A stretch of DNA of 64,000 bases from assembly GCA_023229115.1 (NCBI GenBank), contig JALNZW010000001.1, forward strand, positions 70,861-134,860. The letters are read 5' to 3'. Origin of the DNA: Patescibacteria group bacterium. Its GTDB lineage: Bacteria > Patescibacteriota > Patescibacteriia > Patescibacteriales > UBA12465. The notes under the pieces were generated by a model that was not told the DNA's origin, did no database searches, and saw only the letters and a program-made list of their open reading frames with translations. A program made the translations under genes and the position numbers. Below are positions 1,357 through 59,778 of the stretch, one piece after another (positions within the stretch are counted from its first letter, which is position 1; every line of letters begins with the position of its first letter).

Positions 1357-1732
1357 AGAAATTAATTTAAATTATTAGATGTTGGTTTTTCCAAATAAAA
1401 AAACCCACATTTTCGAATTTGAAGTATAGGGACTCACCCCTCTTCAAAATTCTTTCCGTTAGGTTCTTATAATTGCTTATTAATTTCTATTAGCTCTATA
1501 AAGGCAGGCTTTTTTGGTAACGCATTTGTGCGGACCTGTCTCTAGTTATTTAGTTGTTAATTTAATAATAGCATTATTAAAAAAATAACGCAAGTATTTT
1601 GTTTAATGTTAGCAAAAACAGATATAATATGACTTGTGATATCGCATTATAAGTTATTTAATTTTAGATAAAAAATAGGCTATCTGGGCAATAATAGTTA
1701 ATAATTTGTGTATAACTTTTTGTTTAACTATC

Positions 1733-1760
1733 TTGACTTTATTATTATTTGTGCTATACT
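1733..1760 (+). promoter_or_regulatory. sigma70-type promoter with extended -10
   Basis: TTGACT (1733-1738), 16-nt spacer, TGcTATACT (1752-1760). It lies 785 nt upstream of the next convincing CDS (2545). Confidence 0.5.
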
Positions 1761-1766
1761 AGATAT

Positions 1767-2380
1767 TGAGAATGATTCGTTCTCTTAGCTCATTGACAGT
1801 ATAAAGAAGAGAGATTACCAATTATCAGGTTAATCCAGACTCTCACGGGTTTAAGACCCATAATTGAAAAGAGATATTTATCTCTTACTTCTCGGATAGA
1901 GAAGGCGTTTTGCCCCGTGCAGATATTTGTCTCTGTTGCTCAGAAACATGAAATATTTGTATTGTGTGTGATTTAACATCATAAACAAAATAAATATTAC
2001 ATAACACTGTGTAAATCTAACTGTTTTATAGTTGAATATAAAATTAGTAGACAAATAAAATTCCGGAATAGGTAAAAATACATCCTTTGTTTTAGCGACA
2101 AGGGGTTAACGGTTCTGCTACTTTTAGTAGTTGCAGGCCAGTATGCTGCCAAAGAGCCGAGAGTCAGAAATTGGCCTGCGATGAATGAAGTGCAAATCGT
2201 TAGATTTAGATTTCGGATGACTTATAAATTTAACAATTTAAACTTTAAATATATGCAATATAAAAATTCATATAAGCAAGATAAGGTAATCGCCCTGCTC
2301 ATTACCTTTAATCAAATAACCAAACAGGTTTTGAGGTTAAAAATAAAAGATAAGCAGGCTCTCGGCCTGCTTGCTGATGC
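1767..2380 (+). ncRNA. Candidate structured non-coding RNA region (possible retron msr/msd); boundaries unresolved
   Basis: Downstream of the promoter are GC-enriched patches in an AT-rich background. Hairpins: AAGAGAT/ATCTCTT (1869-1886) and CTTCTC/GAGAAG (1888-1904), possibly enclosed by CACGGG(1854-1859)/CCCGTG(1914-1919). Also GCAGGCCA(2133-2140)/TGGCCTGC(2172-2179) and AAGCAGGC(2352-2359)/GCCTGCTT(2365-2372). I could not identify a1/a2 repeats or a branching G. Confidence 0.3.
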
Positions 2381-2544
2381 CATGCAAATTAATAAGCAAT
2401 TATTATCCTTAATTAAGAATAATAAAACCAGTTTAGAATTTGTAAGACAGACGTTCACTATTATTTCAATTATTTTGAAAGAAGTAGTCAGCAAGTGGCT
2501 CTTCCGTTACAATTTAACGCCAGTAATGGCTTAAAAATATAAAT

Positions 2545-2859
2545 ATGGCATCAATAGGACAATTAATAAAAATTGGCAGAATCAATAAGAGTCTTAGTCA
2601 GGAAGATGTTGCCTCTAAGTTAAAGGTGACAAAGAATTATATTTCTTTGGTTGAAAATAATAAGAAAGATCCAAGCATAAACTTCTTGAAAAAGATTTCA
2701 AAATTACTTGATATTCCTGTAATTCTTTTAATTTGGGAAAAAATTGATCTACCAAAAGGGAAAACAGAGTCTGAAAAGAAAATATTGTCTCAATTAGAGA
2801 ACATGATAGAAAATGCTCAGAAGATTTTTGCAGACGAATCTTTTAAAACAAAAAGATGA
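2545..2859 (+). CDS. XRE-family helix-turn-helix transcriptional regulator
   Basis: 104-aa ORF with a classic XRE HTH (LSQEDVASKLKVTKNYISLVENNKKDPSINFLKKISKLL). Its stop overlaps the RT start (ATGA at 2856-2859). Confidence 0.85.
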   Translation: MASIGQLIKIGRINKSLSQEDVASKLKVTKNYISLVENNKKDPSINFLKKISKLLDIPVILLIWEKIDLPKGKTESEKKILSQLENMIENAQKIFADESFKTKR

Positions 2860-3773
2860 AAAAAAGGAAATTATTAAATATTAATACGATCTCAGAACTT
2901 AGTCGTCAAATCGGTCTTCCAGAAGAATTTTTATTAAGGGTTTCTGAAAATATAAATAATTATTATGAAAAATTTGAAGCTAGAGATAAAAAAGGTAAAG
3001 AAAGGTCATTTTATTCTGCAAATAATGATTTAAAAAAAATACATAAGTCTATAAACAGGCTTTTAGATTCATTAGACTATCCAATTAATATACAAGGAGG
3101 AATTACTAAAAGATCAATAGTAACAAATGCTTCAATGCATGTGGGAAAAAAATATGTAGCAAACTATGATATAAAAAATTTTTTCCCCAGCGTGAATTAT
3201 AGAATTGTCTATAAAGCCTTTCGGAGGCAAAAATGTGCACCAGATGTTTCAAGAATATTAACAATGCTGACTACTGCAGATGGATGTCTGCCTCAAGGTT
3301 TTGCTACAAGTCCTAAAATTTCTGGATTAGTTTTATATAATGCTAATTTCAGAATAGAAAAACTTTTGCGACCATTTGGATTAGTTCATACTTTTTGGAT
3401 AGATGATTTAACCATATCTGGCCATCATCCAATAAAAAAGTTTCAAAAATTATTATATAAAATATTTAAACAAGAGGGTTTTAGTTTGCACGATGATCCT
3501 AAAAAGGCTAAAATAACCGATTCAAAACATCGTCAAACTTGCACTGGACTTATTATTAATCAGGAATTAAACCCCGAAAGAGGGCTTAAAAGTAAGGTTA
3601 GAAAAGAAATTTATTTATGTAAAAAGTTTGGTATTAAAAATTTTTTAGAAGAGCATAATTCACCATTTGATAAAGATACATACTTAAAAAAATTAGCTGG
3701 TAATATTAGTTTTTTATGCAATGTAAATAAAAAGAATATAATTTTTAAAAAAGAATTAGAATTATTAAAATAA
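2856..3773 (+). CDS. Retron-type reverse transcriptase
   Basis: 305 aa, retron-size. Motifs: TNASMH (retron NAxxH), NYDIKNFFPSV, CLPQGFATSPKISGL, FWIDDLTISG (YxDD box) and RQTCTGLIINQ (VTG-like). It is collinear with Ec86 RT as I recall that sequence. Confidence 0.85.
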   Translation: MKKRKLLNINTISELSRQIGLPEEFLLRVSENINNYYEKFEARDKKGKERSFYSANNDLKKIHKSINRLLDSLDYPINIQGGITKRSIVTNASMHVGKKYVANYDIKNFFPSVNYRIVYKAFRRQKCAPDVSRILTMLTTADGCLPQGFATSPKISGLVLYNANFRIEKLLRPFGLVHTFWIDDLTISGHHPIKKFQKLLYKIFKQEGFSLHDDPKKAKITDSKHRQTCTGLIINQELNPERGLKSKVRKEIYLCKKFGIKNFLEEHNSPFDKDTYLKKLAGNISFLCNVNKKNIIFKKELELLK

Positions 3774-3774
3774 T

Positions 3775-4524
3775 ATGTCAGAATATTATACGCCAAAAAG
3801 AATGAAGGGGCTATACAATCCAGAATCAAAAGAACCATTCAAGTTGTCGAGATCTAAAATAGATTTATTTTTAGAATGTCCTCGATGTTTTTATTATGAT
3901 CGCAGACTTGGGACTGGCAGACCACCAGGATTTCCCTTTGCTTTAAATTCGGCAGTCGATTATCTTCTGAAACAAGAATTCGATATTTATAGAGCAAACG
4001 GAGAAAATCATCCGCTAATACATAAGTATGGGATAGACGCTCGACCGATTCCGCACGAAGATTTGGATAATTGGAGACATAATTTTACAGGCATTCAATT
4101 TTTACATAAACCAACCAATCTTTTAATATTTGGCGCCATTGACGATCTTTGGCAGAATTCAAAAGGTGAATATATTGTCGTTGATTATAAGTCGACATCT
4201 AAAAATGAAAAGATATTTGAGCTTAATAAGGATTGGCAGATTGGTTACAAAAGACAGATGGAGGTTTATCAATGGCTATTGAGACAAAATGGGTACAAAG
4301 TATCAGATGTTGGCTATTTTGTTTATTGTAACGGAATAACTGATAGAAAAGCATTTGACGCTAAATTAGAATTTGATATAACCCTTATCCCTTATACGGG
4401 TAATGATTCATGGATAGAAAAAACAATTTTGGCCGCTCATAAATGTTTAAATGACGACGTAATCCCAGTATCTGGTCAGGATTGTGATTATTGTAAATAT
4501 ATAGATGCTGTTAATAATAGATAA
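3775..4524 (+). CDS. PD-(D/E)XK (Cas4/RecB-like) nuclease with four Cys
   Basis: 249 aa. N-terminal LSRSKIDLFLECPRCFYY, then GAIDDL...YIVVDYKST (D...DxK), QMEVYQWLL (QxxxY) and a C-terminal CDYCKY. Starts 1 nt after the RT stop. Confidence 0.75.
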   Translation: MSEYYTPKRMKGLYNPESKEPFKLSRSKIDLFLECPRCFYYDRRLGTGRPPGFPFALNSAVDYLLKQEFDIYRANGENHPLIHKYGIDARPIPHEDLDNWRHNFTGIQFLHKPTNLLIFGAIDDLWQNSKGEYIVVDYKSTSKNEKIFELNKDWQIGYKRQMEVYQWLLRQNGYKVSDVGYFVYCNGITDRKAFDAKLEFDITLIPYTGNDSWIEKTILAAHKCLNDDVIPVSGQDCDYCKYIDAVNNR

Positions 4525-4541
4525 AACTATTTTGATTTTAT

Positions 4542-5030
4542 ATGTCTGTAAAAAAGTCTGAAAAGAAACGTAGATCGGATATTATCTTTGGTATTTTGTT
4601 AGCCTCAACTCTCGGGGTAATTTTAAATTTATTTTCAAGTTTATATTATGATTTATTTGTTAAAAAAATAATAAAATGGTCAGATGTTAATCAGCAGCAC
4701 GTGATGATTTGGTTTTTCATTCTTTTAGCCACATGGGGTTTTATTAGCTTCTTTGTTTATGATTATAAAAATAATGTAGAAATAAATAAGGTTCTTTTTT
4801 GGAAAAGGTTTGGAAACTATTTTTTTAAATCTTTCAAGCCTTTTAAGATACTAAAAATAATTACCGGATTATATTTAATTATCTTTATAATTTTTTTGAT
4901 TTTTATATTTTTGATAACTTTATTTTTTATAATAAATGAGGTTACAAATTGGCTATTTGCATCTACTTCGGTCGTCTTAATATTAATAGGTATAATTTTA
5001 CATATTTACAAGAAGTACTTAAAAAAATAA
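4542..5030 (+). CDS. Small integral membrane protein (about 4 TM segments)
   Basis: 162-aa ORF, 17 nt after the nuclease gene. Four hydrophobic stretches, e.g. IIFGILLASTLGVILNLF and LYLIIFIIFLIFIFLITLFFII. No recognisable domain. Confidence 0.6.
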   Translation: MSVKKSEKKRRSDIIFGILLASTLGVILNLFSSLYYDLFVKKIIKWSDVNQQHVMIWFFILLATWGFISFFVYDYKNNVEINKVLFWKRFGNYFFKSFKPFKILKIITGLYLIIFIIFLIFIFLITLFFIINEVTNWLFASTSVVLILIGIILHIYKKYLKK

Positions 5031-5063
5031 TAGATATTTTTAAATAGGTTTTTATTAAATATA

Positions 5064-5092
5064 AAAAATCACCCTCGACCTAGGTGATTTTA
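5064..5092. terminator. Bidirectional intrinsic terminator
   Basis: AAATCACC (5066-5073) / GGTGATTT (5083-5090) stem, with an A-run upstream and T's downstream. Sits between convergent genes ending at 5030 (+) and 5169 (-). Confidence 0.5.
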
Positions 5093-5168
5093 AATAAATA
5101 TCTAAAACATTTTGTCCCTATATTGCCCGCATTTCTGCGTATGACTAACAAAATATAATAGAATATTC

Positions 5169-5384
5169 TTATTTCATTATATCAATCTTATTCTCTTTCA
5201 AATAATTAATAATATCTTCTTCTGAAAATCTGATAACGCCGCTTATTTTATAAAAAGGAATTTTTCTGCTCTCAACTATTCTATAAGCTGTCGTTTTAGA
5301 TATATTAAATATATTTTTAAGATCATTAATTGATAATAATTTTAAATTTTTTAGCAACTTTTCATTCATAATATTATTATACAA
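5169..5384 (-). CDS. Excisionase-family (MerR-like) HTH DNA-binding protein
   Basis: 71 aa. LSINDLKNIFNISKTTAYRIVESRKIPFYKISGVIRFSEEDIINYL matches the excisionase-type HTH pattern. Confidence 0.7.
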   Translation of the reverse strand: MYNNIMNEKLLKNLKLLSINDLKNIFNISKTTAYRIVESRKIPFYKISGVIRFSEEDIINYLKENKIDIMK

Positions 5385-5405
5385 TAAAATAAATCAATTA
5401 AAAAT

Positions 5406-39995: not shown

Positions 39996-42299
39996 ATGAC
40001 CGAAAAAAAATATTTGTGGATTTTAAAAATTGGAGTTTTTTCATCTTTGATAACTCTTTTTTTGGTTTTTTCTAATTGGCTTTTTCCTTTTGTAACTTCC
40101 AAACAGTTAGTATTTAATATTTTGATTGAAATTTTATTTGTTTTTTATTTAGTTTTTATTTTGAAATTTCCAGCTTATCGTCCCAAAAAATCTTATGTTA
40201 GTTTTGGTCTTTTGGCTTATTTTGTAGCTCTTCTTTTTTCTTTGTTTGTCAGTGTTGATTCTAATTTAAGTTTTTGGGGTGATTTAGAGAGACTTTTGGG
40301 ATTTTTTCACCTTTTACATTTTTTGGCTCTTTATTTAATTACTATTACTGTTTTTAAAACTAAACAAGAATATTATTGGCTTTTTAATGCCATGCTTTTG
40401 GCTTGTTTAATTATTTCAGTTGCCATGATTACTAATTCGGCTGAAAGATATTCTCAGAGCTTATTGGGTAATAGAGCTTATTTAGCCGCTTTTGTTCTTT
40501 TTGCTATATTTTTAAGTTTTTTAATGATTAGTAATTATAAAAATTGGTGGAATAGGAGTATTTATATTGTTTCTATCCCAATCTTTATTTATACCCTTGT
40601 GAAAGCCGACATTTCAGGCTCTCATGCTGGTTTATTGTCGGGAATATTCATTTTTCTTTTATTACTTTCAATTTTAAATAGAAATAAAAAAAAGAAAATT
40701 ATCGGAGTTTCATTATTGTTGTCTTTTATAGTATTAATATCTACTCTTTTTTATTTTCGCTCTAATCAGATTTTTGATGGAACTTATTTGGGACGAGCTT
40801 TGAGAGATTTTTCTAGTGAAAACGTTACTTTAAATACTCGACTCATTTCTTGGAAAGCTGCTGGTAATTATTTGCTTGATCATCCTATTAATATGATCTT
40901 CGGAGTTGGTTTGGGTAATTATGCTTTGGTTTTTGATAAATATTTTGATGCTGATTTTTATAACTACGATCGACATGCAACTTATTTTGATAGGGCTCAT
41001 AATAATTTAGTTGATATTACTGCTACCACTGGTTTGCTTGGTCTTTTAACTTATTTGTTATTTATTGTTTCTTTGTTTTATTTCTTGTTTAAATCTTATT
41101 TACAGTATCGTAAGAACAATGATAATCCTAGAGCTTTAAATTTGCTGGAGTTGTCAGCTTTAAGTGGTCTTCTAGTGGCTTATTTTGTCCAGAATTTAGC
41201 TGTTTTTGATTCTTTTTCAACTTACATGTATTTGATGTTTGTAGCCGCCTATATTCATTTCTTAGAATTATCTGCCAAAACTAAGGTGGAAGAAAAAAAG
41301 AAGGAAGGTGTGAAAATCAAAGAAGGTGTTTTATTTCTATTTTTTGCTTCAATATTTTTAATTCTAATCTTTAGTGTTAATATTCGAGCTATTAAAACAT
41401 CCAAGGCTACGATTGGTGCTTATATTTCTTTGGGCAAGGGTGATATAATGGGGAGTTACAATAATTTTGAAAAAGCTTTTGGATATCAATCAGTTTTAGT
41501 TCGTGATAGTCGCGAATCTTATATAACTTTAATGACTAATAATTTTGATTCAATGTTGAATAAGGTTTCTTTGGAAGATTTAGAGAAAATTGTTTCGCTA
41601 GGTATTTATGCGGCTAATTCTAATTTAAATTATAATGTCAATGATAGTTTAATGCTATTTCGAGCAGCTAAAATATATGAAATGGCTGGTCGTTTTTATG
41701 CTAAAAAAGGGGATAACGAATTGGCGGTTGAGAATAATTCTTTAGCCTTAAAAATGATTGACTTGTCAATTGAGGCAAGTCCTCAAAGAGTTCCTCTGTA
41801 TTCTTTTAAATCCAGTATTCTTTTAAATTTTGGTAAAGATCAAGAGGCTATTGATACCTTGAATTATGCTAAAGAAATTAATCCGAAAATGCCCGACGCT
41901 TTTTGTCAGGTTGCTAATTTATATTTTTTAGAAGATGATATTGATAATTTTCTTTTAGACCTTAAATCTTGTGCTGACAACAGAGGTTTTGATTTAATGA
42001 GTTTTGATTCCTTTATAACTCGTTTTGAAGAAAAGTTGTTAGAAGATAAAAAGTATGAAGCAGTTATTGGGATGTATGATATTATTTTAGAAAAATATCC
42101 TGACAATATTGACTGGTTGTCTCGCGGGGGGTTAGCTTATTATGTGGCTGGTGATTTTTCTAAAGCTAGAACTTGCGCTGAAAGAATATTAGAATTAGAT
42201 GAATCTTATCAAGAAGATGTTGATGTTTTTTTAGAGCAACTTGACGCTGAAGAAGCAGTAAAAAATCAAGAAGAAAATATAGTAGAAAACAACAATTAA
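39996..42299 (+). CDS. O-antigen ligase/polymerase-like (Wzy_C) membrane protein with C-terminal TPR domain
   Basis: 767 aa with about 12 TM helices. Wzy_C-type loop RLISWKAAGNYLLDHPINMIFGVGLGNY...DRAHNNLVDITATTGLLGL. TPR-like repeats in the C-terminal 300 aa. Confidence 0.8.
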   Translation: MTEKKYLWILKIGVFSSLITLFLVFSNWLFPFVTSKQLVFNILIEILFVFYLVFILKFPAYRPKKSYVSFGLLAYFVALLFSLFVSVDSNLSFWGDLERLLGFFHLLHFLALYLITITVFKTKQEYYWLFNAMLLACLIISVAMITNSAERYSQSLLGNRAYLAAFVLFAIFLSFLMISNYKNWWNRSIYIVSIPIFIYTLVKADISGSHAGLLSGIFIFLLLLSILNRNKKKKIIGVSLLLSFIVLISTLFYFRSNQIFDGTYLGRALRDFSSENVTLNTRLISWKAAGNYLLDHPINMIFGVGLGNYALVFDKYFDADFYNYDRHATYFDRAHNNLVDITATTGLLGLLTYLLFIVSLFYFLFKSYLQYRKNNDNPRALNLLELSALSGLLVAYFVQNLAVFDSFSTYMYLMFVAAYIHFLELSAKTKVEEKKKEGVKIKEGVLFLFFASIFLILIFSVNIRAIKTSKATIGAYISLGKGDIMGSYNNFEKAFGYQSVLVRDSRESYITLMTNNFDSMLNKVSLEDLEKIVSLGIYAANSNLNYNVNDSLMLFRAAKIYEMAGRFYAKKGDNELAVENNSLALKMIDLSIEASPQRVPLYSFKSSILLNFGKDQEAIDTLNYAKEINPKMPDAFCQVANLYFLEDDIDNFLLDLKSCADNRGFDLMSFDSFITRFEEKLLEDKKYEAVIGMYDIILEKYPDNIDWLSRGGLAYYVAGDFSKARTCAERILELDESYQEDVDVFLEQLDAEEAVKNQEENIVENNN

Positions 42300-42358: not shown

Positions 42359-44404
42359 ATGATTTCTAACACAAAAAAAAGAGGTTTTACCCTTATTGAA
42401 CTCTTAGTAGTAATAGCTATTATTGGAATCCTTGCCACTTTAGCGGTTGTAGCTCTACAACAAGCTAGAAGCAGAGCTAGGGACTCTAAAAGAATGGCTG
42501 ACATGAAGCAAGTTCAAACAGCCTTAGAGTTATTCTTTAATGAAAATGGTAGATATCCAACCACTGAAGAGTGGAATAGTGGCTCTATAGTTTCTTCTAC
42601 CTCTCAAGAAACATTTATGTATTCTATCCCAACTGCCCCCTCTCCTGCTGATGGAGATTGTCTAGAAGCTTCTAATACTTATACCTACGTACCTCAAAAT
42701 GATGGTGCTAGCTATACCATAGACTTTTGTACTGGTAAACAAGTGTCTGATATGCCAGACGGAGCCAAGCAAATGACTCCTGGAGGAATAATATTTGGTA
42801 GTAGTGAGGTTGGTGGTGATAGTCTTCCTGGCGTTGGCTGTTTAGTGGACTCAACTGGTTGTGGTTGGGCGTCAGTTTCATCTTCTTTTTCTACTGTTAA
42901 TCCTGATTTTCTTTCTTTTTATGTTGAAAATGATATTTTGTATGTTGCTTACAGGGATTCATTGTATTCTAGTAGAGCTACTGTTAAAAAGTTTGATGGC
43001 ACCAACTGGATAACTGTTGGTAATCCAGGTTTTTCGGACGGAATGTCAAATGATGTCTCTTTGTTTGTTTATAATGGCACTCCGTATATAGCTTATCGTG
43101 ATTACGGAAACAATTCAAAGGTTACCGTTATGAAATTCGATGGTTCCAGCTGGGTTAATGTTGGAAATCCAGGCTTTTCAGCTGGCGATGGATGGAATGT
43201 TTCTTTGTATGTTTATGATGACACTCCCTATATTGCTTATTCTAATAATTTTAATAGTGGAAAGGTTACAACTATGAAATTTGATGGTTCTAGCTGGGTT
43301 GATGTTGGAAGTCCTCTCCCTGTTGCAGAATCTTCTTTTGATTTATTGCCTCTTTCAATCTTTATTTATAACGGTAGTCCTTATTTAGCTTATAAAGATA
43401 ATTCTAATAATGGTGACATTTCAGTTTCAATGTTTAATGGTTCTGACTGGGTTAATGTTGGTGATCTCGGATTTTCTATTGGTTCAGTTGATTCAAATAA
43501 TTTAATATCATTTTTTGTAGACAATAACGTTCCTTATGTTGCTTATAGTGATTCCGAAAATAACTACTCTATAAGAGTTATGAAATATGATGGTTCATCG
43601 TGGGTTGTTGTTGGAGATGGTTTTTTTGGGCAATATTCATATGTTTATTCAAGGTCTCTATTCGTTTATCAGGGGGTTCCTTATTTGGCTTATTCTAGCG
43701 ATGAATATTCGGGTTTAATGAGCGTGGCTAGGTTTAAAAACTCCAACTGGGAATTTGTTGGTAATCAAAATTTTTCAGATGAAGAAAGTTATTGGATTAA
43801 TATTTTTGTTGATAATGACAATGCTTATGTTGCTTATTCTGGTTTGAAAACAATAGCTAATGTGGTTTCTTATACTAGCTGTGTTCCGGATTGTTCTGGT
43901 AAAAGTTGTGGTAATGACGGTTGTGGTGGACTATGTGGTTCTTGCCCAGATTTTTATACATGTGAGTCTGGCGTTTGTATACCACCAGTTTGTTTTTTAT
44001 CGGGCACAAAGATTTCAATGGCCGATGGAAGTTATAAAAACATAGAAGATGTTGTTGTTGGAGATGTGGTGAAGAGTTATGACTTTACAACAAAAAGTTT
44101 GGTTTCTGGTAAGGTTTCAGAATTAATTAAACATTCGTCTGAAAAAACTAGTTCATATTTAATTATAAATAAAAACTTAAAGGTGACTCACAATCATGAA
44201 ATATTATTGAATGGATATTGGAAGCAAATAGGCGAAGCCAGAATAGGTGATTATATGCAATTAGAAGACGGAAGTTTTAGATTTGTTGATTCTATAGAAA
44301 TCGTTTATGAAAATGTTCCAACTTATAATTTTGAAGTAGAAGATTACCATAATTATTATGCTGAAGGAATTTTGGTTCATAATGCACTTCCTCCTGGTTG
44401 TTAA
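42359..44404 (+). CDS. Type IV pilin-like protein fused to 7 propeller-type repeats, a Cys-rich module and a C-terminal Hint domain
   Basis: 681 aa. Prepilin leader [26 protein letters not shown]. Seven repeats of ..PY(I/V/L)AY.D......[48 protein letters not shown]. Hint domain [13 protein letters not shown]...VTHNHE...[20 protein letters not shown] (43991-44382), then ALPPGC*. Confidence 0.85.
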
Positions 44405-44511
44405 TTTTTAGGTACGTATAGTTTTGTGTTTATAATCAAAATTTAAGTTTTATTAAATAACGTTAGTTTTTTAAATATTGCACATTAAAATATTAATTGG
44501 AGGACGACACA

Positions 44512-45201
44512 ATGAAGGGAAAAAATTTAATAAAGATGTTTTTTGGTTTCTTTTCTTGTTTGGCGGAGAAAAGAAAAGAAATGAACAATCTATTTGATTG
44601 GGAAGTTGATCAATTAAGAAAAAACGGTTTTCCAGAAAAAATTTTGTTTCATTTAGAGAGTCAAAGAAAGAGGGTTGTTAAAAAGGCTTGTAACTATTGT
44701 TATCCAGTTTATTTAGATTCAATTCCTTTTTTACCTGTATTTTCTCTCAAGGTTTTAGAAGAAGTATTTAAATCTCCTTTGCTTAGTATTAATCAAAAAG
44801 AGGGGAGTGAGTTAAATCTTTTTGATTCTATTAACATGGAAAAGATTTATAATAAAATTGGTTTGGATAAAGATTTTTATTTTTTATTTGGCGGGGGAAA
44901 TGGTTTGGATGAAGATTCTATTGCAGGAATTTCGCCAGAAAAAGCTGAAAAAGTTTTTGAATGCCTTGACATTACCCCAATGAATGTTAATGAAGCTTTA
45001 TCTTTTCTTATTTTGTTTTCTAGTTTGTATAATGGTGGCGGAGAGAGGATATCAATTTTAGGATCAAGGTACAGAAAGGAAGATTTTGTTCCCGAACTTT
45101 TCAGGTGTCGAAATGGATTTAGACTTTCAGACGATCTAATAAACAATGATGATAAGAAGAAAGTTTATCCAACCTGTTTAAAAAGAATATCTTTTTCGTA
45201 A
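44512..45201 (+). CDS. Hypothetical protein
   Basis: Track ORF starts at TTG 44497. GGAGGA (44499-44504) sits 7 nt before the ATG at 44512, which I prefer. No recognisable domain. Confidence 0.55.
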   Translation: MKGKNLIKMFFGFFSCLAEKRKEMNNLFDWEVDQLRKNGFPEKILFHLESQRKRVVKKACNYCYPVYLDSIPFLPVFSLKVLEEVFKSPLLSINQKEGSELNLFDSINMEKIYNKIGLDKDFYFLFGGGNGLDEDSIAGISPEKAEKVFECLDITPMNVNEALSFLILFSSLYNGGGERISILGSRYRKEDFVPELFRCRNGFRLSDDLINNDDKKKVYPTCLKRISFS

Positions 45202-45220: not shown

Positions 45221-45248
45221 AAAAAAGCGACTTTTATGTCGCTTTTTT
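45221..45248. terminator. Intrinsic terminator overlapping the 3' end of the convergent gene
   Basis: A-run, GCGAC (45227-45231) / GTCGC (45238-45242) stem, then T6. Confidence 0.45.
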
Positions 45249-47557: not shown

Positions 47558-49510
47558 ATGAGAGTTTTAAAGATTTTAAGACAAAATATTCTAACAGTTT
47601 CTCTTTTTTTTATTTCCAGCATTGCTATCATTGGATCTTTTTTGTATTATTTCTGGGCTTTAAATAATTTTTCTTATTTTATTCTTTTATTTTTAAGCCT
47701 TTTGGTTAGTACTGTCTTTTTTTATTTTATCATTTATAAGTCTTATCGGCAAGAAAAAGAGTTAAATAATAATTTAAATTCAAAGACTCTTTTTATAAAT
47801 TTTTCTCTTTTTTTATTAGCTTTCTTTTTGTTTATTTCTTTAATATTGGCTCTATCTGGGGCTTCTAGCGATTTAGCCATAATATCTCCTTGGCATCTTA
47901 TTCCTAATTATTTTTATTTACTTTTATTTGTTTTTTTATCTTTATTGTTTATTTCTTTTTATCTTAATTCCTCTTTTTCTAAAATATTAATTATTTTAGC
48001 TTATTTTCTTTTTTTCTCAATTTCTTTCTTTGTTTATAAAATAGCTTTTGGCTATGATCAATTACTTCATCAAAGAGCTTTAAGTGAAATATTGCAGTTT
48101 GGTTTTATAAATCCCAAAACTTTTTATTATATTGGACAATACTCTTTAGAATTCTTTTTAATTAAAACCTTGCCTTTTTCATTGGAGTTTATTAGTCGAA
48201 GCTTGGTTCCGGTTTTATCAGCTCTTTTTATTCCTTTAAGTTTCTTTAAGGTTTTTAAAAATAAAATAAGCTCTAATTATTATTACTTATTAATTTTATT
48301 ATTACTTCTACCTTTTTCTATTTTTACTTATACTGTTCCACAGAATTTAGCTTTCTTCTTTTTAACTATTTTAATTATTTTTTCTTTAGATAAAGATTTT
48401 ATTTCAGAAAGAAAAAATTACATATTCTTGTCCGCCTTGGCCTTAGCTTCCTTTTTTGTTCATCCTTTAGCGGGCATTCCAGCAGTTATTTTTGTAGTGA
48501 TAATGTTTTTTTCCTTTTGTCATCCCAGCGAGCCACGTTTTACGTGGCGAAAGCTGGGATCCAGATCAAGAGGAATAAGACTTTTATTAATTTCTGGTCT
48601 TTATCTTGCTCAAATATTTATTTTGCCAATTCTTTTGTTTTTTGTTGGCGGAAAATTAGCTTGGCCACAAATTGGTTTTCAGTTTTTGATTCCTAAATTT
48701 TTGGGACAAGAAAATATTTATTTAAACACTGTCTATTTTTTATTTTTCAATAGATTTTATTTATTTTTTGTTTTGTTTTTAATTGGACTTTATTTCTGGA
48801 TTAAAAAGAGAAGGGAGGCATGGTCTAATATTTATTTATATAATTTCTTAGCCTTATTTTTATCTTATATTTTAAGCTTATTTGTTTCTTTTCCGTTTTT
48901 AAGTGCTATTGATAAAAATTCTTATTCCCAAAGAGTTCTAATTATTTCTTTATTGTTTTTAATTCCAATCTTTTTGAATTTATTTTTAGAAATTATTGAA
49001 AGAGTTAAAAAACAAGAAAAAAACTTTAAATTTTATTCTATCCTGTTCTTGTTGTTGTTTTTGCTATCATCACTTTATTTAAATTATCCACGTAAAGATA
49101 ATTATTTTAATTCTCGTGGTTATTCAGTTTCTAGCTCTGATTTTGAGGCAGTAAAATTGATTGAGGATGTTAAAATTAATGATAATTATATAGTTTTAGC
49201 CAATCAACAAGTGGGCGCAGCCGCTATTAAAGAGTTGGGGTTTAAGAGATATTATGACGGTTGGCTATATTATTCAGTTCAAACTGGTGGCTTGTTTTAT
49301 GATTATTATTTAAAAATGTTAGATAACCCAGACAGGAAATTAGTAAAAGAGCTTTTATCTCAAGTAGAAGCTGACAATGCTTATCTTGTAGTTAATGACT
49401 ATTGGTGGGCTTATGAGCGAATAATAAATGAGATGAAAGTTGAGGCTGATAATTATTATCAAACGAGCGACGGAAAGGTTTCGGTATTTCATTTTGATTT
49501 TGTTAAATAA
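47558..49510 (+). CDS. Large polytopic membrane protein with C-terminal soluble domain (possible GT-C-type glycosyltransferase)
   Basis: 650 aa. More than 12 hydrophobic segments, then a C-terminal domain of about 150 aa. Divergently adjacent to two GT4 genes. Family not recognised; the GT-C idea is architecture-based only. Confidence 0.65.
   Translation: MRVLKILRQNILTVSLFFISSIAIIGSFLYYFWALNNFSYFILLFLSLLVSTVFFYFIIYKSYRQEKELNNNLNSKTLFINFSLFLLAFFLFISLILALSGASSDLAIISPWHLIPNYFYLLLFVFLSLLFISFYLNSSFSKILIILAYFLFFSISFFVYKIAFGYDQLLHQRALSEILQFGFINPKTFYYIGQYSLEFFLIKTLPFSLEFISRSLVPVLSALFIPLSFFKVFKNKISSNYYYLLILLLLLPFSIFTYTVPQNLAFFFLTILIIFSLDKDFISERKNYIFLSALALASFFVHPLAGIPAVIFVVIMFFSFCHPSEPRFTWRKLGSRSRGIRLLLISGLYLAQIFILPILLFFVGGKLAWPQIGFQFLIPKFLGQENIYLNTVYFLFFNRFYLFFVLFLIGLYFWIKKRREAWSNIYLYNFLALFLSYILSLFVSFPFLSAIDKNSYSQRVLIISLLFLIPIFLNLFLEIIERVKKQEKNFKFYSILFLLLFLLSSLYLNYPRKDNYFNSRGYSVSSSDFEAVKLIEDVKINDNYIVLANQQVGAAAIKELGFKRYYDGWLYYSVQTGGLFYDYYLKMLDNPDRKLVKELLSQVEADNAYLVVNDYWWAYERIINEMKVEADNYYQTSDGKVSVFHFDFVK
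48523..48559. repeat. GC-rich nested palindromic element inside a coding sequence
   Basis: TCCCAGC-GA-GCCACGT-TTT-ACGTGGC-GAAA-GCTGGGA. Translated in frame as ..HPSEPRFTWRKLGS.. within a hydrophilic loop. Confidence 0.7.
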
Positions 49511-52502: not shown

Positions 52503-53780
52503 ATGTTTAAAAAAAGACGAGCCTTCACCCTCGTTGAACTGTTAGTAGCGGTAGCTATCATTGGCATACTCGCTACTTTAGCGGTAGTAGCTCTACAACA
52601 AGCTCGTTCTAGAGCTAGAGACAGCAAAAGAGTAGCTGATATCAAGCAAATTCAGACAGCTTTGGAATTGTTTTTTAATGAATACAATAGATATCCAAGT
52701 AGTAATGAGTGGAGTAGTAATGTAATAGGCACAAGTACTAATAATATATATATGCATTCCATTCCCGAAGCACCAAAAACTATTGATGGTGATTGCGAGA
52801 TGGGAGACTATATATATTCCTTGGTTGATGATGGTTTAAGTTATCAGATAAATTTTTGTATAGGAAGACAAGTCTCTGATTTGCCAGCGGGTAATTTATG
52901 TGCTAGTCCAGGTGGTATAAACTATTGTGGTATTCAAGACGAAGAAATTGGTGAAACTATTACTTATATTCTAAACTTCGATGCTCAAGGTGGTACTGTT
53001 AATCCTTTATTCAAAGAAGTCGTTTATAATCAAGCAATAGGGGAGCTTCCTATTCCAACAAGAGAATATTATGTTTTTTTAGAATGGAACACTCAAGCCG
53101 ACGGCAGTGGAGATACTTATGAATCTAACACAATATATATTAATGAAAATAATTCAATTATTTATGCTATTTGGGAATTTGTTTGTGAGGGTGCTATTCC
53201 TTTTGAAGGTTTAAATTATAATTTAGTTGAAGCTCTTGATGGAAAGTGTTGGCTTGATAGAAATTTAGGAGCTAGTGCCGTAGGTTCTGTTGGTTGGATG
53301 TATCAGTGGGGAAGATTAAAAGACGGTCATCAATTGTATAATAGTAATACAACTACGATTTTATCTTCTAGTACGAATCCTGGAAATTCTAATTTTATTA
53401 TAAACACTTCTCATCCTAGAAATTGGTTAAATTACAGAGATAACACACTTTGGCAAGGGGTGCATGGTGGTAATAATCCATGCCCACCAGACTTTAGGGT
53501 TCCCACTATATTTGAATGGCAAAATTTTGTTTCTGCTGAAAATATTAGCAATAATAGTAATGCTTATAATTCTTCATTAAAATTACCTAGTTATAAAGAG
53601 CGTTATTCAAGTGGTAGTTATAGAATCACTTCATTTGATGAAGCTAATTATTGGTCCAGTAGTCCAGTATCTTCTTATCCAGATTATTCTTATTATTTGC
53701 GCATAACACATGAAGAGGTTTATACCACTGGCTATACCTTTAGAGCAACTGGATTTACAGTAAGGTGTATAAGAAATTAG
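52503..53780 (+). CDS. Type IV pilin-like protein fused to a Listeria-Bacteroides repeat and a FISUMP-type domain
   Basis: 425 aa. MFKKRRA/FTLVELLVAVAIIGILA. YILNFDAQGGTV...YVFLEWNTQADGSG...IIYAIW. CWLDRNLGA...YQWGR...CPPDFRVPT..EW...YWSSS...GFTVRCI. Confidence 0.8.
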   Translation: MFKKRRAFTLVELLVAVAIIGILATLAVVALQQARSRARDSKRVADIKQIQTALELFFNEYNRYPSSNEWSSNVIGTSTNNIYMHSIPEAPKTIDGDCEMGDYIYSLVDDGLSYQINFCIGRQVSDLPAGNLCASPGGINYCGIQDEEIGETITYILNFDAQGGTVNPLFKEVVYNQAIGELPIPTREYYVFLEWNTQADGSGDTYESNTIYINENNSIIYAIWEFVCEGAIPFEGLNYNLVEALDGKCWLDRNLGASAVGSVGWMYQWGRLKDGHQLYNSNTTTILSSSTNPGNSNFIINTSHPRNWLNYRDNTLWQGVHGGNNPCPPDFRVPTIFEWQNFVSAENISNNSNAYNSSLKLPSYKERYSSGSYRITSFDEANYWSSSPVSSYPDYSYYLRITHEEVYTTGYTFRATGFTVRCIRN

Positions 53781-55021: not shown

Positions 55022-56542
55022 ATGTTTTTAAAATACTTTTGGCCAGTTATTTCTATTTCTTTTTCTTTAGGCTTGTGTCTGGCTAATATTTTTTTGGATT
55101 TTTCTAAAAGAGAAGAATTTTATTTTTTCTCTTTATTTTTATTATTTTTAATTTTATCCTTTTTCTTTTTTAAATTAAATAAAAATTCTTATTCCAATAA
55201 ACTTCCTTTATTTTTACTCTTTATTTCTTTTTTGTTTTTTGGTTTTTGGCGTTACTTAATTTCTTGGCCAGATTATAATGATAAGCATATTATTTATTAT
55301 GCCAAACAAACTAATCGATTAATTTGTTCAATTGAAAATATTGAACTGAAAAATGAACAACAGAAAATAAAAGCCCAAGTTTTAAAAATATTAAGCGACA
55401 AAGGAGAAACAAACGTCTCTGGTAAAATTTTAATTATTGGTGAAAAATTTCCTTTATATAGAGTGGGTGATATTTTAGAAGTAGAAGCTTTTTTGGAGAA
55501 AGGAAGTAAAATTGCTAATTTTGATTATAATCTTTACCTTAAAAGAAATAATATTTCTCTATTTTCTTCTTATCCAAAAATTAAAATAGTGGGAGAATTA
55601 AACAAACATTTTCTTTTTAAAAAACAAATTTTAGGGATTAAAAAATATTTAATAAGTGTTTTTGATTTTAATCTTTCTCTTGAATCAGCTTCCTTAGCCA
55701 AGGCTATTTTATTGGGCGATAAAAGTGATTTAAGTTATGAACAAAAAGATGTTTTTTCCAAATCGGGTCTGAGTCATTTGGTGGCTATTTCTGGTTTGCA
55801 TATTAGTTTGCTTTCAGGTTATTTTTTAAATTTATTATTATCCTTGGGGTGCTCTCGTCGAAAATCTTTTTATTTTATTAATATTTTTTTATTATTTTAT
55901 TTAAGTTTGATTGCTTGGCCGCCCTCTGCTTTTAGGGCTTATTTAATGGGCTCTTTGTCTCTTCTTTCTGTTTACTTAAACAGAAAGGGGAGCGTAGTTA
56001 ACGTTTTGTTTTTTTCGGCTTTTATTCTGTTAATAATTAACCCCTTTTTGTTATTAGCTGATTTGGGTTTTCAATTATCATTTTTGGCTGTTTTAGGTAT
56101 TATTTATATCTATCCCAGGTTTAAAGAATTTTTATTGAAAATTATTTTTAAATTTAAAATATTAAAATGCAAAAAAATTGTTGCCAATATTTTGGATATT
56201 TTTAGTCTCACCTTGTCGGTTCAATTAATAACAGCTCCAATTTTGATTAGGAGTTTTGAGCAGTTTTCTTTGGTAGCTCCTTTGTCTAATTTATTTGTTT
56301 TGTGGCTGATTCCTCTTATTATTATTTTTTTAATTTTAGGATTAATTTTATCTTTTTTATTTCCTTTTTTATCATCTCTTTTATTTATCCCAGCTGAAGT
56401 TTCTTTTGAGTATTTTAATTTTATTGCTGAGAAATCTTTATTAGTACCAAAGTCGTTTATCAATTTAGAAATTAACTCACCTTTATTTTTTTGTTTCTAT
56501 TATTTGTTGTTGTTTTATTTTATTTTTAAAACAAAAAAATAG
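55022..56542 (+). CDS. comEC: ComEC/Rec2 competence channel protein (no MBL domain evident)
   Basis: 506 aa. SKSGLSHLVAISGLHISLL competence-domain signature and an N-terminal OB-like region. No HxHxDH metallo-beta-lactamase motif seen. Confidence 0.85.
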   Translation: MFLKYFWPVISISFSLGLCLANIFLDFSKREEFYFFSLFLLFLILSFFFFKLNKNSYSNKLPLFLLFISFLFFGFWRYLISWPDYNDKHIIYYAKQTNRLICSIENIELKNEQQKIKAQVLKILSDKGETNVSGKILIIGEKFPLYRVGDILEVEAFLEKGSKIANFDYNLYLKRNNISLFSSYPKIKIVGELNKHFLFKKQILGIKKYLISVFDFNLSLESASLAKAILLGDKSDLSYEQKDVFSKSGLSHLVAISGLHISLLSGYFLNLLLSLGCSRRKSFYFINIFLLFYLSLIAWPPSAFRAYLMGSLSLLSVYLNRKGSVVNVLFFSAFILLIINPFLLLADLGFQLSFLAVLGIIYIYPRFKEFLLKIIFKFKILKCKKIVANILDIFSLTLSVQLITAPILIRSFEQFSLVAPLSNLFVLWLIPLIIIFLILGLILSFLFPFLSSLLFIPAEVSFEYFNFIAEKSLLVPKSFINLEINSPLFFCFYYLLLFYFIFKTKK

Positions 56543-57789: not shown

Positions 57790-59778
57790 ATGTTTAAATA
57801 TTTTTCTAAAAATTACAAATTTAAAAAAGCCTTCACCCTCATCGAACTCCTAGTGGTAATCGCTATTATTGGAATACTGGCTACTCTAGCAGTTGTCGCC
57901 TTACAACAAGCTCGCTCTCGTGCTCGTGATAGTAAAAGAATAGCTGATATAAAACAAGCTCAAACAGCCCTAGAATTATTCTTTAATGAACAGGGAAGAT
58001 ATCCTACCGAAGAAGAATGGTTAAGTGGTTCTCTCATTACTTCCAGTGGCCAAGTACTTATGTATAATATTCCTTCTGCTCCTTATCCAGCTGATGGAGT
58101 ATGTGATGCCAGTCAAAATAACTTCTACTATCAAGTAAGCGAAGATAATTCTACCTACACTTTATCATTTTGTCTAGGAAATGATGTCTCTAATCTTTCT
58201 AAAGGTTTAAAATGTGCTACTCCTGGAGGCATACTTAATTATAGCTGCTTGGGAGATAATAGTGGTGGTGATAATAATGGTGGTGGTGATAATAATGGTG
58301 GAGGTGATAATAATGGCGGAGATGAAGGTGGTGGAGATGATAATAATGAAAATCCTAATCCTAATATTTGCCACCCCGATTGTCAACCTGGTTATATTTG
58401 CAATAATGAATCTGTTTGCGTTATAGATTTTGAAAATAATGGTCAAAATCTTATACATAATTGTGGAAATGAATCAAGTGTTGCTCCGGGGACTGTTTGT
58501 GGTGGTGGAATAGTTGTCTATAATGGAACTGATATTTATTCTGGGGGAAGCATTATTTTAATCGCAGCTGCTAAGAATGCTTGGTATTCCTGGAACAACA
58601 ATAGTACAGATGATCCAACGTCTCCCTGGGGTTGTAGTTCTAAATTGATAGGAGGTACTAGTCAGGAGATTGGCGCTGGAAAAAGTAATACCGCCTTAAT
58701 TGTGTCTAATTGTACTGACTCAGGGGCTGCCAAAAAAGCTGATGAATATACTGATGGTTTTTATACTGATTGGTTTTTAGCTTCTTCTAAAGAAGCTTTA
58801 GAGTTTAGAAAATATATGAATCAAGTTTCATACGTTAGAAATTCTTTCTGGACATCATTTGAATTCTCAAGTGATGGTGCTCATAATTTAAGAATGGATA
58901 ATATTTCTCTTTCTAATCATTCAAAAAATAATCAAAATAATTTTAGGCCAATTAGAATGATTAAGTATGACAAAGGGGTTCCAGTAATAAAAACAAAATC
59001 CTTCAGCAATGTAACTGGTAACACAGTCATAGTTAACGCAGAAATAGAAAGTGAAGGGGCTTCTAGTGTTACTGAAAGAGGTTTTGTTTGGAGCGTTAAT
59101 TATAATCCAACAATAAATGATAGCAAGTTAGTTATTAATTCTGGCTCTAGTCAGTTCTCTGGAGAGATAACTGGTCTTAACTCTATTACAAAATACCACG
59201 TTAGAGCTTATGCAATTAACAGTATGGGTCTTTCTTATGGGGAAAATATTTCTTTTACAACCGTTTACTCGGAGTGTTTACCGGGCGCTTCTTTGGGAAG
59301 TATTTGTGGTGGTGGAATAGTTGTCTATAATGGAACTGATATTTATTCTGGGGGAAGCATTATTTTAATCGCAGCTGCTAAGAATGCTTGGTATTCCTGG
59401 AACAACAATAGTACAGATGATCCAACGTCTCCCTGGGGTTGTAGTTCTAAATTGATAGGAGGTACTAGTCAGGAGATTGGCGCTGGAAAAAGTAATACCG
59501 CCTTAATTGTGTCTAATTGTACTGACTCAGGGGCTGCCAAAAAAGCTGATGAATATACTGATGGTTTTTATACTGATTGGTTTTTAGCTTCTTCTAAAGA
59601 AGCTTTAGAGTTTAGAAAATATATGAATCAAGTTTCATACGTTAGAAATTCTTTCTGGACATCATTTGAATTCTCAAGTGATGGTGCTCATAATTTAAGA
59701 ATGGATAATATTTCTCTTTCTAATCATTCAAAAAATAATCAAAATAATTTTAGGCCAATTAGATCTGTTAAATATTAA
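57790..59778 (+). CDS. Type IV pilin-like protein with GGDNN linker, two identical DUF1566-like domains and a central Fn3-like domain
   Basis: 662 aa. ..[25 protein letters not shown]1566-type pattern CGGGIVVY...[11 protein letters not shown]...AAKKADEY...[11 protein letters not shown], twice. The middle domain has ERGFVWS...[25 protein letters not shown]. Confidence 0.8.
58264..58350. repeat. Imperfect 15/18-bp tandem repeat (GGTGGTGGTGATAATAAT-like)
   Basis: Encodes [28 protein letters not shown]. It also generates spurious ORFs on both strands. Confidence 0.7.
58496..58956. repeat. Direct repeat copy 1 (461 bp)
   Basis: Line-by-line comparison shows no difference from 59303-59763. Confidence 0.9.
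59303..59763. repeat. Direct repeat copy 2 (461 bp)
   Basis: Matches 58496-58956 with no difference found. The offset is 807 bp (269 codons, in frame). Confidence 0.9.

Follow-up and report, generated by a model that had tools for sequence, protein, structure and literature searches.

We report that a gene in a 64,000-nucleotide stretch of Patescibacteria group bacterium DNA (contig JALNZW010000001.1, positions 70,861 to 134,860 of the forward strand; hereafter the window, meaning this stretch at its full length) encodes a type IV pilin that carries a bacterial intein-like (BIL) domain at its C-terminus and ends in a conserved cysteine. On balance we favour the reading that this is a modular pilin whose BIL domain would remove itself by way of a thioester at the Val544-Cys545 junction, with the terminal cysteine serving as thiol partner, a scheme whose chemical steps we infer throughout. 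The open reading frame (ORF; 42359..44404, plus strand; 681 codons, stop TAA) encodes, in this order, a class III (prepilin) leader, an alpha-1 helix, a pilin head, a seven-bladed beta-propeller, an eight-cysteine module, a 131-residue Hint domain and the six residues ALPPGC. A reading of the same DNA made from its letters only (the sequence-only reading) had proposed this order, and every listed element was present when checked one by one. An identical protein is held at NCBI as MCK9438566.1, on a 221-kb contig of a Patescibacteria-group metagenome-assembled genome, where its only name is 'prepilin-type N-terminal cleavage/methylation domain-containing protein'. Because of this identical protein, and because relatives are present on many independent contigs, the pilin-Hint gene is no assembly artefact. 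There is likewise no sign of an alternative genetic code (code 25), as TAA is the commonest stop of the window (39 of 53 long ORFs) and TGA is rare (3 of 53) yet still serves as a stop.

The pilin module is recognizable by several independent measures. The protein opens with a canonical class III signal peptide, MISNTKKRG|[17 protein letters not shown], in which Gly occupies -1, Phe +1 and Glu +5, and which matches Pfam N_methyl (E 1.9e-9) and TIGR02532 (above its cut-off). The leader thus spans residues 1-9 (42359..42385, plus strand, as are all parts of the gene), with a predicted prepilin-peptidase site at G9/F10. It is followed by the alpha-1 helix (residues 10-63, 42386..42547), with a hydrophobic N-terminal half and an amphipathic half, and by the globular head (residues 64-148, 42548..42802) with Cys101 and Cys124. 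The best PDB sequence matches of the pilin part are geopilin, GspG and PilA, PilE also being matched. An AlphaFold2 (AF2) model built from a 49-sequence alignment, with a mean predicted local distance difference test score (pLDDT) of 90, comprises a helix of 55 residues at the N-terminus, a small pilin head, seven blades of four strands each and, at the C-terminus, a compact all-beta domain. Within it, the helix at residues 8-63 and the strands at 85-146, all with pLDDT > 90, form the helix and beta-sheet head expected of a pilin, so that the prepilin leader, hydrophobic helix and pilin head named by the sequence-only reading are borne out by profiles, PDB matches and model alike. The model, which that reading had suggested as a check, supports the propeller and Hint folds as well, and disorder (pLDDT < 50) is limited to residues 149-157 of a flexible Gly/Ser-rich linker (residues 149-165, 42803..42853) and to the last four residues (678-681). 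The pilin head shares 88% and 80% nucleotide identity with two homologous loci (L001 and L004, respectively), with dN/dS of 0.06-0.10. A modular pilin combines a pilin module with one or more domains not specific to pilus biology (PMC8179133), and the protein conforms to this definition (Raynaud et al. 2021) since the propeller, the Cys module and the Hint domain all follow its pilin module.

The C-terminal domain (residues 545-675, 43991..44383) matches PF07591 PT-HINT (E 8.5e-9, 36.2 bits versus a gathering cut-off of 27.7) and TIGR01443 (intein_Cterm, above its cut-off), with weaker matches to the intein, Hog and Vint models. Foldseek aligned the modelled domain with 2lwy (Clostridium thermocellum BIL4; TM 0.86, rmsd 1.7 Å) and 6y75 (Tetrahymena BIL2; TM 0.81), and the same two proteins, BIL2 (E 6e-10) and BIL4, are its best PDB sequence matches. 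With a pLDDT of about 95 over residues 551-670, the model has a well-defined Hint fold. The assignment to Hint made by the sequence-only reading was therefore correct, as was the start of the domain at 43991, the end having been placed one base short (44382 instead of 44383). To compare catalytic residues we used four full-length homologs with the same pilin ... Cys module - Hint layout (P0001, P0002, P0007 and P0052) and a fifth lineage, P0201 on locus L017, whose contig is broken off at the 5' side and has a higher GC content. The key residues Cys545 (block A), T610-x-x-H613 (block B, VTHNHE), DYHNYY (block F region) and H674-N675 (block G) are invariant across the five lineages; Cys1, TxxH and HN, read from the letters before, are thus both present and conserved in homologs. 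The residue before the domain is Val in the four full-length sequences and in L017, and the +1 residue is Ala, Ile or Gly. Between lineages, pN of the Hint domain is 0.19-0.26 versus a saturated pS of 0.69-0.82 (dN/dS 0.12-0.18 where measurable), a pattern of divergence by which the domain is evidently maintained by purifying selection at the protein level.

Type-A BIL domains are defined by a terminal His-Asn and the lack of a +1 nucleophile, and they yield mostly cleavage products (PMC4031507, PMC7765530, PMC7664689). The domain described here has the N-terminal Cys and TxxH, a terminal His-Asn followed by a non-nucleophilic +1 residue, a variable exported host protein and no homing endonuclease, and by sequence and model we class it as a type-A BIL (Pfam PT-HINT). 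It differs from a Class 1 intein in having no +1 Cys, Ser or Thr, a hypervariable pilin as host and a C-extein of only 5-6 residues. It differs from a polymorphic-toxin module, in which a toxin domain and an immunity gene come after the Hint, in that only ALPPGC and a stop follow; and from Hog in that nothing beyond a six-residue tail follows a Hint whose terminal His-Asn is retained. The earlier statement that Ala at +1 makes canonical intein splicing impossible holds for the canonical route, but ligation of the BIL type is not forbidden and a non-nucleophile at +1 is the rule of the family. In type-A BILs, splicing is still possible when the amine freed by Asn cyclisation attacks the N-terminal thioester (aminolysis), although cleavage dominates (PMC4031507), and these domains turn into efficient splicers once a +1 Cys nucleophile is supplied (PMC7664689).

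The most distinctive feature of the protein, as we read its sequence, is one that the sequence-only reading had not considered, namely the terminal Cys of the mini C-extein ALPPGC (residues 676-681 plus TAA, 44384..44404). The corresponding tails are ALPPGC in P0001 (97% identical), IIGGC in P0002 (61% identical), IPGGC in P0007, GLGGGC in P0052 and ALGGGC in P0201, so that the terminal Gly-Cys is common to the five lineages. At the DNA level, all four full loci and the fifth, partial one end in GGT TGT TAA, whereas the preceding tail codons, the length of the tail (5 or 6 residues) and the downstream DNA all differ among lineages. Terminator hairpins lie directly after the stop in L004 and L017. 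Because Gly-Cys-TAA closes the gene in five lineages whose synonymous sites are saturated, the tail is no truncation artefact and we take the gene end to be genuine. As the five Hint domains are each other's nearest relatives, the tail has a single origin and has been kept ever since.

These gene ends also dispose of the idea that the gene is a degenerate polymorphic toxin, or an assembly artefact, from which a C-terminal toxin was lost. Such an origin is suggested by the name of the best Pfam match, 'Pretoxin HINT', and by classic PT-HINT toxins recovered among the distant relatives (L013 and L014). Yet the same G-C-TAA end, found in five lineages and on many independent contigs, gives way to intergenic DNA and terminators, no toxin- or Hint-like coding remnant lies downstream in any frame, and 22 of 22 pilin-Hint proteins (see below) have C-exteins of at most 23 residues, none with a toxin domain. 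We regard this explanation, and with it the loss of a C-extein through assembly error that the sequence-only reading had named as a danger, as effectively refuted. A related candidate, a decayed second Hint or readthrough after the stop ('C*FLGT', which resembles CFLSGT), was rejected, TAA being the dominant stop. Beyond the stop, the DNA of the window is rich in A and T and interrupted by stops in every frame, and it bears no relation to the DNA at this place in the other loci, for which reason 'FLGT' is a chance feature of AT-rich intergenic DNA.

The origin of the tail becomes apparent from the wider family. When 1.84 billion representative proteins were searched exhaustively by HMMER with the Hint and tail as query, 11,620 relatives were obtained at E <= 1e-3, many of which carry several tandem copies inside very large proteins. 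Family statistics were drawn from 178 Hint-bearing relatives with 294 domains and 292 complete C-ends. Cys1 is present in all 294 domains and the terminal His-Asn in 279 of 292; the +1 residue (n=292) is K in 137, A in 40 and G in 27, while C and T are rare (4 each). Termination shortly after the domain is frequent, too, as 46 of the 178 relatives end within 8 residues of HN, most often as ...VHNK-stop, and complete terminal copies always have at least one residue after the Asn. The sequence-only reading was thus right that there is almost no C-extein here, but in this very large family that is common rather than exceptional, as is a +1 residue that is no nucleophile. Another Hint follows 131 of the 292 C-ends, with linkers (mode 2, median 6 residues) that are typically Lys plus a Gly run before the next Cys1, such as HN-KGG-C, HN-KGGG-C or HN-GKGGGG-C (Gly(1-5)). 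The pilin tail [23 protein letters not shown] has the form of this tandem-Hint junction, HN-x-Gly(n)-Cys1, stopped right after Cys1. We therefore read the mini C-extein as a tandem-Hint junction cut down to its linker and one residue of the second Hint and kept under selection, the terminal Cys corresponding to Cys1 of the following Hint. This conserved one-residue 'stump' of a second Hint is previously unremarked.

Among family proteins P0121-P0294, Lys is by far the commonest +1 residue and the tandem K-Gly(n) linkers are only 1-6 residues long. Because Tetrahymena BIL2 forms a Lys isopeptide, it is a possibility, by analogy, that the +1 Lys acts as a general nucleophile and that tandem Hints pass an acyl group from one to the next.

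Upstream of the Hint lies an eight-Cys module (residues 508-540) with the pattern CxPxCxGKxCGxDGCGGxCGxC...C...C, which together with the four-residue junction IPPV, ending in Val544 (the -1 residue), occupies 43880..43990. It had been noticed before as a Cys-rich stretch between propeller and Hint, and its Cys positions are conserved in all five lineages; even when scanned alone at E <= 1 it gave no Pfam match. The closest non-pilin relatives, P0211 and P0217, which are giant surface proteins with a Sec signal, have a related Cys-rich module before their terminal Hint. The module also forms the C-terminus of P0016, a pilin without Hint and without the extra Cys, and is for this reason self-contained. 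Cys545 and Cys681 are the only two Cys outside the pilin head, the linker loop and the eight-Cys module, and the total is even (4 + 8 + 2).

The passenger between pilin module and cap (residues ~166-507, 42854..43879) consists of seven ~49-aa repeats of the form PY[IV]AY...[15 protein letters not shown], anchored on PY[IVL]AY at residues 194, 242, 290, 341, 392, 441 and 489 with a spacing of 48-51 aa. AF2 folds them into seven strand quartets, that is, the seven four-stranded blades of a beta-propeller, and, to judge from the strand list of the model, a strand at 168-172, N-terminal to the repeats, probably completes the last blade. Foldseek against the PDB gave the seven-bladed LGI1 EPTP domain as the best propeller match (TM 0.74, E 4e-13), so anchors, model and structural match all uphold the seven repeats of about 50 aa that had been read from the letters; no Pfam or NCBIfam model matched the propeller region at E <= 1. 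We consider the propeller probably a ligand-binding or adhesion module.

Comparison of loci indicates that this passenger is exchangeable. In L001 the flanks are 85-88% nucleotide-identical to the window, but blastn no longer detects most of the propeller part. L004 and L009 have an unrelated SDGGY-repeat module where the window has the propeller, and in both the pilin N-terminus and the Cys-module/Hint end are conserved. The passenger is thus an exchangeable cassette between two constant gene ends, which is what diversifying pressure on an adhesin would be expected to produce; hypervariable regions of surface proteins are a known location of BIL domains in general (PMC7765530). Both versions occur side by side in L007 6102-11946 (contig ERZ21878328 contig_9), where three modular pilin genes stand in a row after a Wzy_C gene: one for a 594-aa pilin, then P0052 (SDGGY repeats, Cys module, Hint, GLGGGC), then P0016 (PYxAY propeller, Cys module, no Hint). 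P0052 and P0016 are thus graded versions of the same C-terminal cap within one genome.

The Cys module, Hint and tail might be chemically irrelevant and be kept, like the 5' end of the pilin, as a homology anchor for recombination of passenger cassettes, the GC tail being a neutral stump of a lost second Hint. The wholly different passengers between loci that are otherwise 80-88% identical, the conservation of both gene ends, the known place of BIL domains in hypervariable regions and the likeness of the tail to a truncated tandem junction would all suit this idea. Conservation acts at the level of protein and not of DNA, however, as seen from the saturated pS, the low dN/dS and the invariant catalytic residues, and Gly-Cys-stop would not have persisted in five lineages, amid neighbours that change in sequence and length, were it a neutral stump. 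We hold this explanation to be very unlikely.

Two further modular type IV pilins are encoded in the window, neither with a Hint. The first (52503-53780, plus strand; 425 aa) has a Flg_new (Listeria-Bacteroides) repeat and a FISUMP/Fib_succ_major domain, and the second (57790-59778, plus strand; 662 aa) has a T2SSG-like head and a stretch weakly similar to arabinanase. The 5' ends of both genes are 77-78% nucleotide-identical to the pilin module of the L001 homolog, and therefore one pilin module is reused with different passengers. A gene for a ComEC/Rec2 competence channel (Competence + DUF4131; 55022-56542, plus strand) lies between them, a position which hints that some of these pilins may serve a DNA-uptake (Com-type) pilus and not an adhesive one.

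On the reading we favour, a modular pilin with a self-removing BIL domain and a terminal Cys as thiol partner, the protein would be exported by Sec and fold outside the cytoplasm. The pilin module would present the seven-bladed propeller on a pilus, with the eight-Cys module as a disulfide-rich spacer and the BIL and tail as a C-terminal cap. An N-to-S acyl shift at Val544-Cys545 would place the C-terminus of the whole 58-kDa pilin-adhesin on a thioester; that the thioester-bearing N-extein would be the entire pilin-adhesin, as proposed before, follows from the domain layout. Cyclisation of Asn675 would then cut the bond to Ala676, and the net result would be that the 15-kDa Hint removes itself from the pilin. 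Cys681, on its flexible Gly/Pro linker, is most likely an intramolecular thiol partner of Cys545, and two ways of using it can be envisaged. First, Cys681 might take over the acyl group in place of the missing +1 nucleophile, and the freed amine of Ala676 would complete a ligation that yields ...CIPPV-ALPPGC, a product 538.7 Da heavier than the one formed by hydrolysis. Second, a Cys545-Cys681 disulfide might protect or latch the active site in the extracytoplasmic space. We slightly favour acyl capture over the disulfide.

Several observations weigh against this scheme. A Cys at +5/+6, instead of +1, means that S-to-N transfer needs a large cyclic transition state, and a +1 Cys would have been the simpler solution were splicing the goal. 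The argument from conservation has few sequences behind it, since five lineages of a single clade are all that is known. Many relatives end in HN-K-stop without any Cys, so the domain as such does not depend on a terminal one. AF2 places the tail without confidence. Finally, neither PilD, PilB, PilC or other pilus-assembly genes nor a prepilin peptidase was found among the window ORFs scanned.

The plainest alternative is that the Hint is a self-removing pro-domain, shed by N-terminal cleavage and hydrolysis after a transient role as a folding aid for the disulfide-rich region, as a means to delay incorporation of a bulky pilin into the fibre, or as a cap until export; the terminal Cys would then be only a disulfide partner that keeps Cys545 from oxidation or mispairing. 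This would agree with the dominance of cleavage products for type-A BILs (PMC4031507, PMC7664689), with the commonness of terminal Hints with tails of 1-8 residues in the family, and with the even number of Cys, as expected if an exported protein pairs them all. It leaves unexplained, on the other hand, why His-Asn is invariant even in terminal copies (279/292) and why complete terminal copies always keep at least one residue after the Asn. Moreover, its end product is what Hint-less paralogs such as P0016, located on the same contig as P0052, already encode. Because P0016 already encodes the product of hydrolysis, yet the 131-aa domain is under selection, we reason that the Hint does more than fall off, and we judge the pro-domain explanation somewhat unlikely.

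The surroundings of the gene bear on a further possibility. A Wzy_C protein (O-antigen ligase/polymerase superfamily; 39996..42299, plus strand; 767 aa; Pfam Wzy_C E 1.9e-14), polytopic and with C-terminal tetratricopeptide (TPR) repeats, lies on the same strand as the pilin gene, ends 59 nt before it and weakly matches the WaaL-type ligase 7tpg. A Wzy_C gene also directly precedes the pilin gene or genes in L001 (5638-7941), L004 (5614-7917), L007 (3772-6015) and L009 (189-2279). The Wzy_C superfamily includes the pilin O-oligosaccharyltransferases PilO/TfpO and PglL. The surrounding cluster contains a Bac_transf initiating transferase, a Wzx-type flippase, an epimerase and GT4 glycosyltransferases, and L001, L004, L007 and L009 are arranged in like manner. 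The Wzy_C protein may be functionally linked to the pilin, and the locus may be a pilin-glycosylation island.

Immediately after the pilin gene, and ahead of the first terminator-like hairpin (bidirectional, 45221-45248), comes an ORF of 234 aa (44497-45201, plus strand) for which Pfam, NCBIfam and PADLOC gave no match. Conserved counterparts with 46-96% identity occur in L002, L004 and L009 but not in the L007/L017 sub-lineage, which has a 325-aa membrane-anchored HEAT-like protein in its place. A conserved accessory gene downstream of the pilin was hence rejected, the 234-aa ORF being limited to one sub-lineage and the neighbours in L007 and L017 being different; no accessory gene conserved across both sub-lineages was found. 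Promoter and terminator scans gave counts no higher than in shuffled sequence. Among the glycosyltransferase genes, a highly hydrophobic polytopic membrane protein of 650 aa (47558-49510, plus strand) has no Pfam or NCBIfam match, and L004 encodes a protein of similar length (656 aa) at the same position, also without Pfam match.

Instead of water or the tail, an external nucleophile such as an amine or hydroxyl might resolve the Val544 thioester, be it on a host-cell surface, cell wall, glycan, lipid or another pilin, whereby the adhesin would become covalently attached, as in Hedgehog or BUBL. By sequence, the closest relative of solved structure is Tetrahymena BIL2, which joins its N-extein to lysines of other proteins through an isopeptide (PMC8616854), and Hedgehog attaches cholesterol by the same first step (PMC7664689). 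The N-extein here is a putative surface-displayed adhesin, the locus lies in a glycan-synthesis cluster beside a Wzy_C-family protein, and selection on the Hint in the face of P0016 suggests that the thioester is used. There is, however, no acceptor-recognition region beyond the 131-aa mini-Hint (neither a sterol-recognition region nor a ubiquitin-like partner) and no partner gene conserved across the two sub-lineages. Simple transfer does not require conservation of HN and tail, and an exposed extracellular thioester would hydrolyse unless gated. The sequence-only reading had suggested covalent attachment to a host surface, cell wall or lipid; this has a chemical precedent in BIL2 (PMC8616854), but nothing that we found supports it for the pilin-Hint protein, and we think such transfer unlikely.

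Fusions of this type recur. A word-index search with the C-terminal 177 aa gave few and mostly fragmentary matches and missed known homologs, so that the exhaustive HMMER and chimeric-profile searches were the more productive. A profile of chimeric 'pilin N-terminus + Hint' sequences recovered eleven further proteins, for a total of 22 pilin-Hint proteins with at least six different pilin types, some of them minor-pseudopilin-like, ~145 aa, and fused directly to one or two Hints. In all 22 the pilin is the N-extein and a C-extein of 3-23 residues, with no toxin domain after it, ends the protein. This survey answers the question, raised by the sequence-only reading, of how such architectures are distributed. 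That such fusions recur in six or more unrelated pilin types, with the pilin invariably the N-extein and a toxin never present, is consistent with a possible pilin-directed role. The clade with the GGC tail is itself rare: it comprised about three 50%-identity clusters in the exhaustive search of representatives, clade-specific patterns found one locus in 185,579 species-representative genomes, and a metagenome scan for more GGC-tail members returned only copies of P0002 and P0007. No paper discussing pilin-Hint fusions was found within the accessible literature. The modular pilin survey lists 'IPR012902 - PF07591' once among 1,219 proteins, in its Dataset S1 and without comment (PMC8179133). 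The earlier impression that no pilin-Hint fusion has been described thus stands as far as discussion goes, with the qualification that there is this one uncommented table entry and that the fusion recurs. What is ordinary about the protein is the domain family, the +1 residue and the terminal position of the Hint; the pilin host, the recurring fusions and the conserved terminal Cys are not.

Elsewhere in the window, a reverse transcriptase (RT; 2856-3773, 305 aa) types as retron-like (PADLOC RT_VI E 1.6e-65, RT_III-A, Ec107-like). It is preceded by ~1.5 kb without long ORFs (1357-2855) and followed, in the region 2856-4524 on the plus strand, by a 249-aa Cas4-like PD-(D/E)XK nuclease and a 162-aa ORF without family match; no Rfam match was found within 1300-5400. 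In sequence, the RT and nuclease region looks like a retron-type defence module in a genome of the candidate phyla radiation (CPR). A diversity-generating retroelement acting on the pilin was considered and rejected, as no template/variable repeat pair lies within 9 kb of the RT, which is retron-like and unrelated.

In CPR/Patescibacteria, type IV pili are regarded as the chief organelles of attachment and motility. A locus in which an adhesin cassette can be swapped between a constant pilin module and a constant, putatively self-processing cap bears on the functional diversity of these pili. The cap is a member of the BIL family, which was discovered two decades ago and whose role in bacteria has stayed largely obscure. 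The tail of 'linker + single Cys' is a natural minimal construct, since it retains, of a downstream Hint, just the single residue that seems important to the Hint before it, and it may explain why tandem Hints with very short Gly linkers are so frequent. Should the domain simply be shed, the protein would add only modestly to the list of known modular pilins. Should the thioester serve in ligation or transfer, pilins would have a post-translational chemistry new to them, and the cap would be a compact (137-aa), naturally extracellular and disulfide-compatible tag for C-terminal protein activation. A bolder extension, which we regard as quite unlikely, is that BIL domains constitute an unrecognised maturation route of type IV pilins, in which an extracellular thioester, with the Cys as relay or redox gate, leads to a covalent bond to a host or to another subunit. 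Bonding to a host would make the pilin a one-shot 'harpoon' of an episymbiotic CPR bacterium, convergent with the internal-thioester tip adhesins of Gram-positive sortase pili, and bonding to a subunit would give type IV filaments their first covalent link. Whatever the outcome, the conserved terminal Cys opens the processing chemistry of the cap to a specific and cheap biochemical test.

Among known systems, the closest in kind are the type-A BILs (Amitai et al. 2003; Dassa et al. 2004; Cth BIL4 2LWY, Aranko et al. 2013), with which the domain shares the Hint fold, Cys1/TxxH/His-Asn, the lack of a +1 nucleophile and of an endonuclease, and a place in the hypervariable region of a non-conserved exported protein. 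By analogy, autocleavage at both ends would be expected and low-level splicing by aminolysis would be possible. Unlike in these precedents, the host is a type IV pilin, the Hint is a C-terminal cap and the C-extein is 5-6 residues long and ends in a conserved Gly-Cys. Tetrahymena thermophila BUBL BIL2 (6Y75/6TMM; Chiarini et al.), the best PDB sequence match of the Hint part and a close structural one (TM ~0.8), demonstrates how an N-extein thioester can pass to an amine to give a K-epsilon-NH2 isopeptide. BIL2 is cytoplasmic, eukaryotic and Zn-regulated, however, and has ubiquitin-like domains as cargo and acceptor, whereas the N-extein of the pilin-Hint protein is a 58-kDa exported pilin-adhesin with no acceptor domain, and its tail has no Lys.

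The polymorphic toxins of PF07591 (Neisseria MafB class I, Rhs, CDI-type) belong to the same Pfam family, are exported and have their Hint at the border of conserved and variable parts. In the pilin, by contrast, the variable part lies upstream of the Hint, neither a toxin domain nor an identifiable immunity gene follows it, and what would be released or activated is the N-extein and not a C-terminal toxin. The modular pilins PilB and PilC of S. sanguinis (PMC8179133) likewise carry a bulky functional module on a pilin module via a short linker, and modular pilins are frequent in CPR (Falkowbacteria, Magasanikbacteria), with several paralogs per genome that share the pilin module, but none of those studied has an autoprocessing domain. 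As in Hedgehog, lastly, a C-terminal Hint would activate a secreted N-terminal domain for transfer by an N-to-S acyl shift; while Hog uses the first splicing step only, the pilin-Hint protein has no sterol-recognition region and keeps both the terminal His-Asn and a C-extein.

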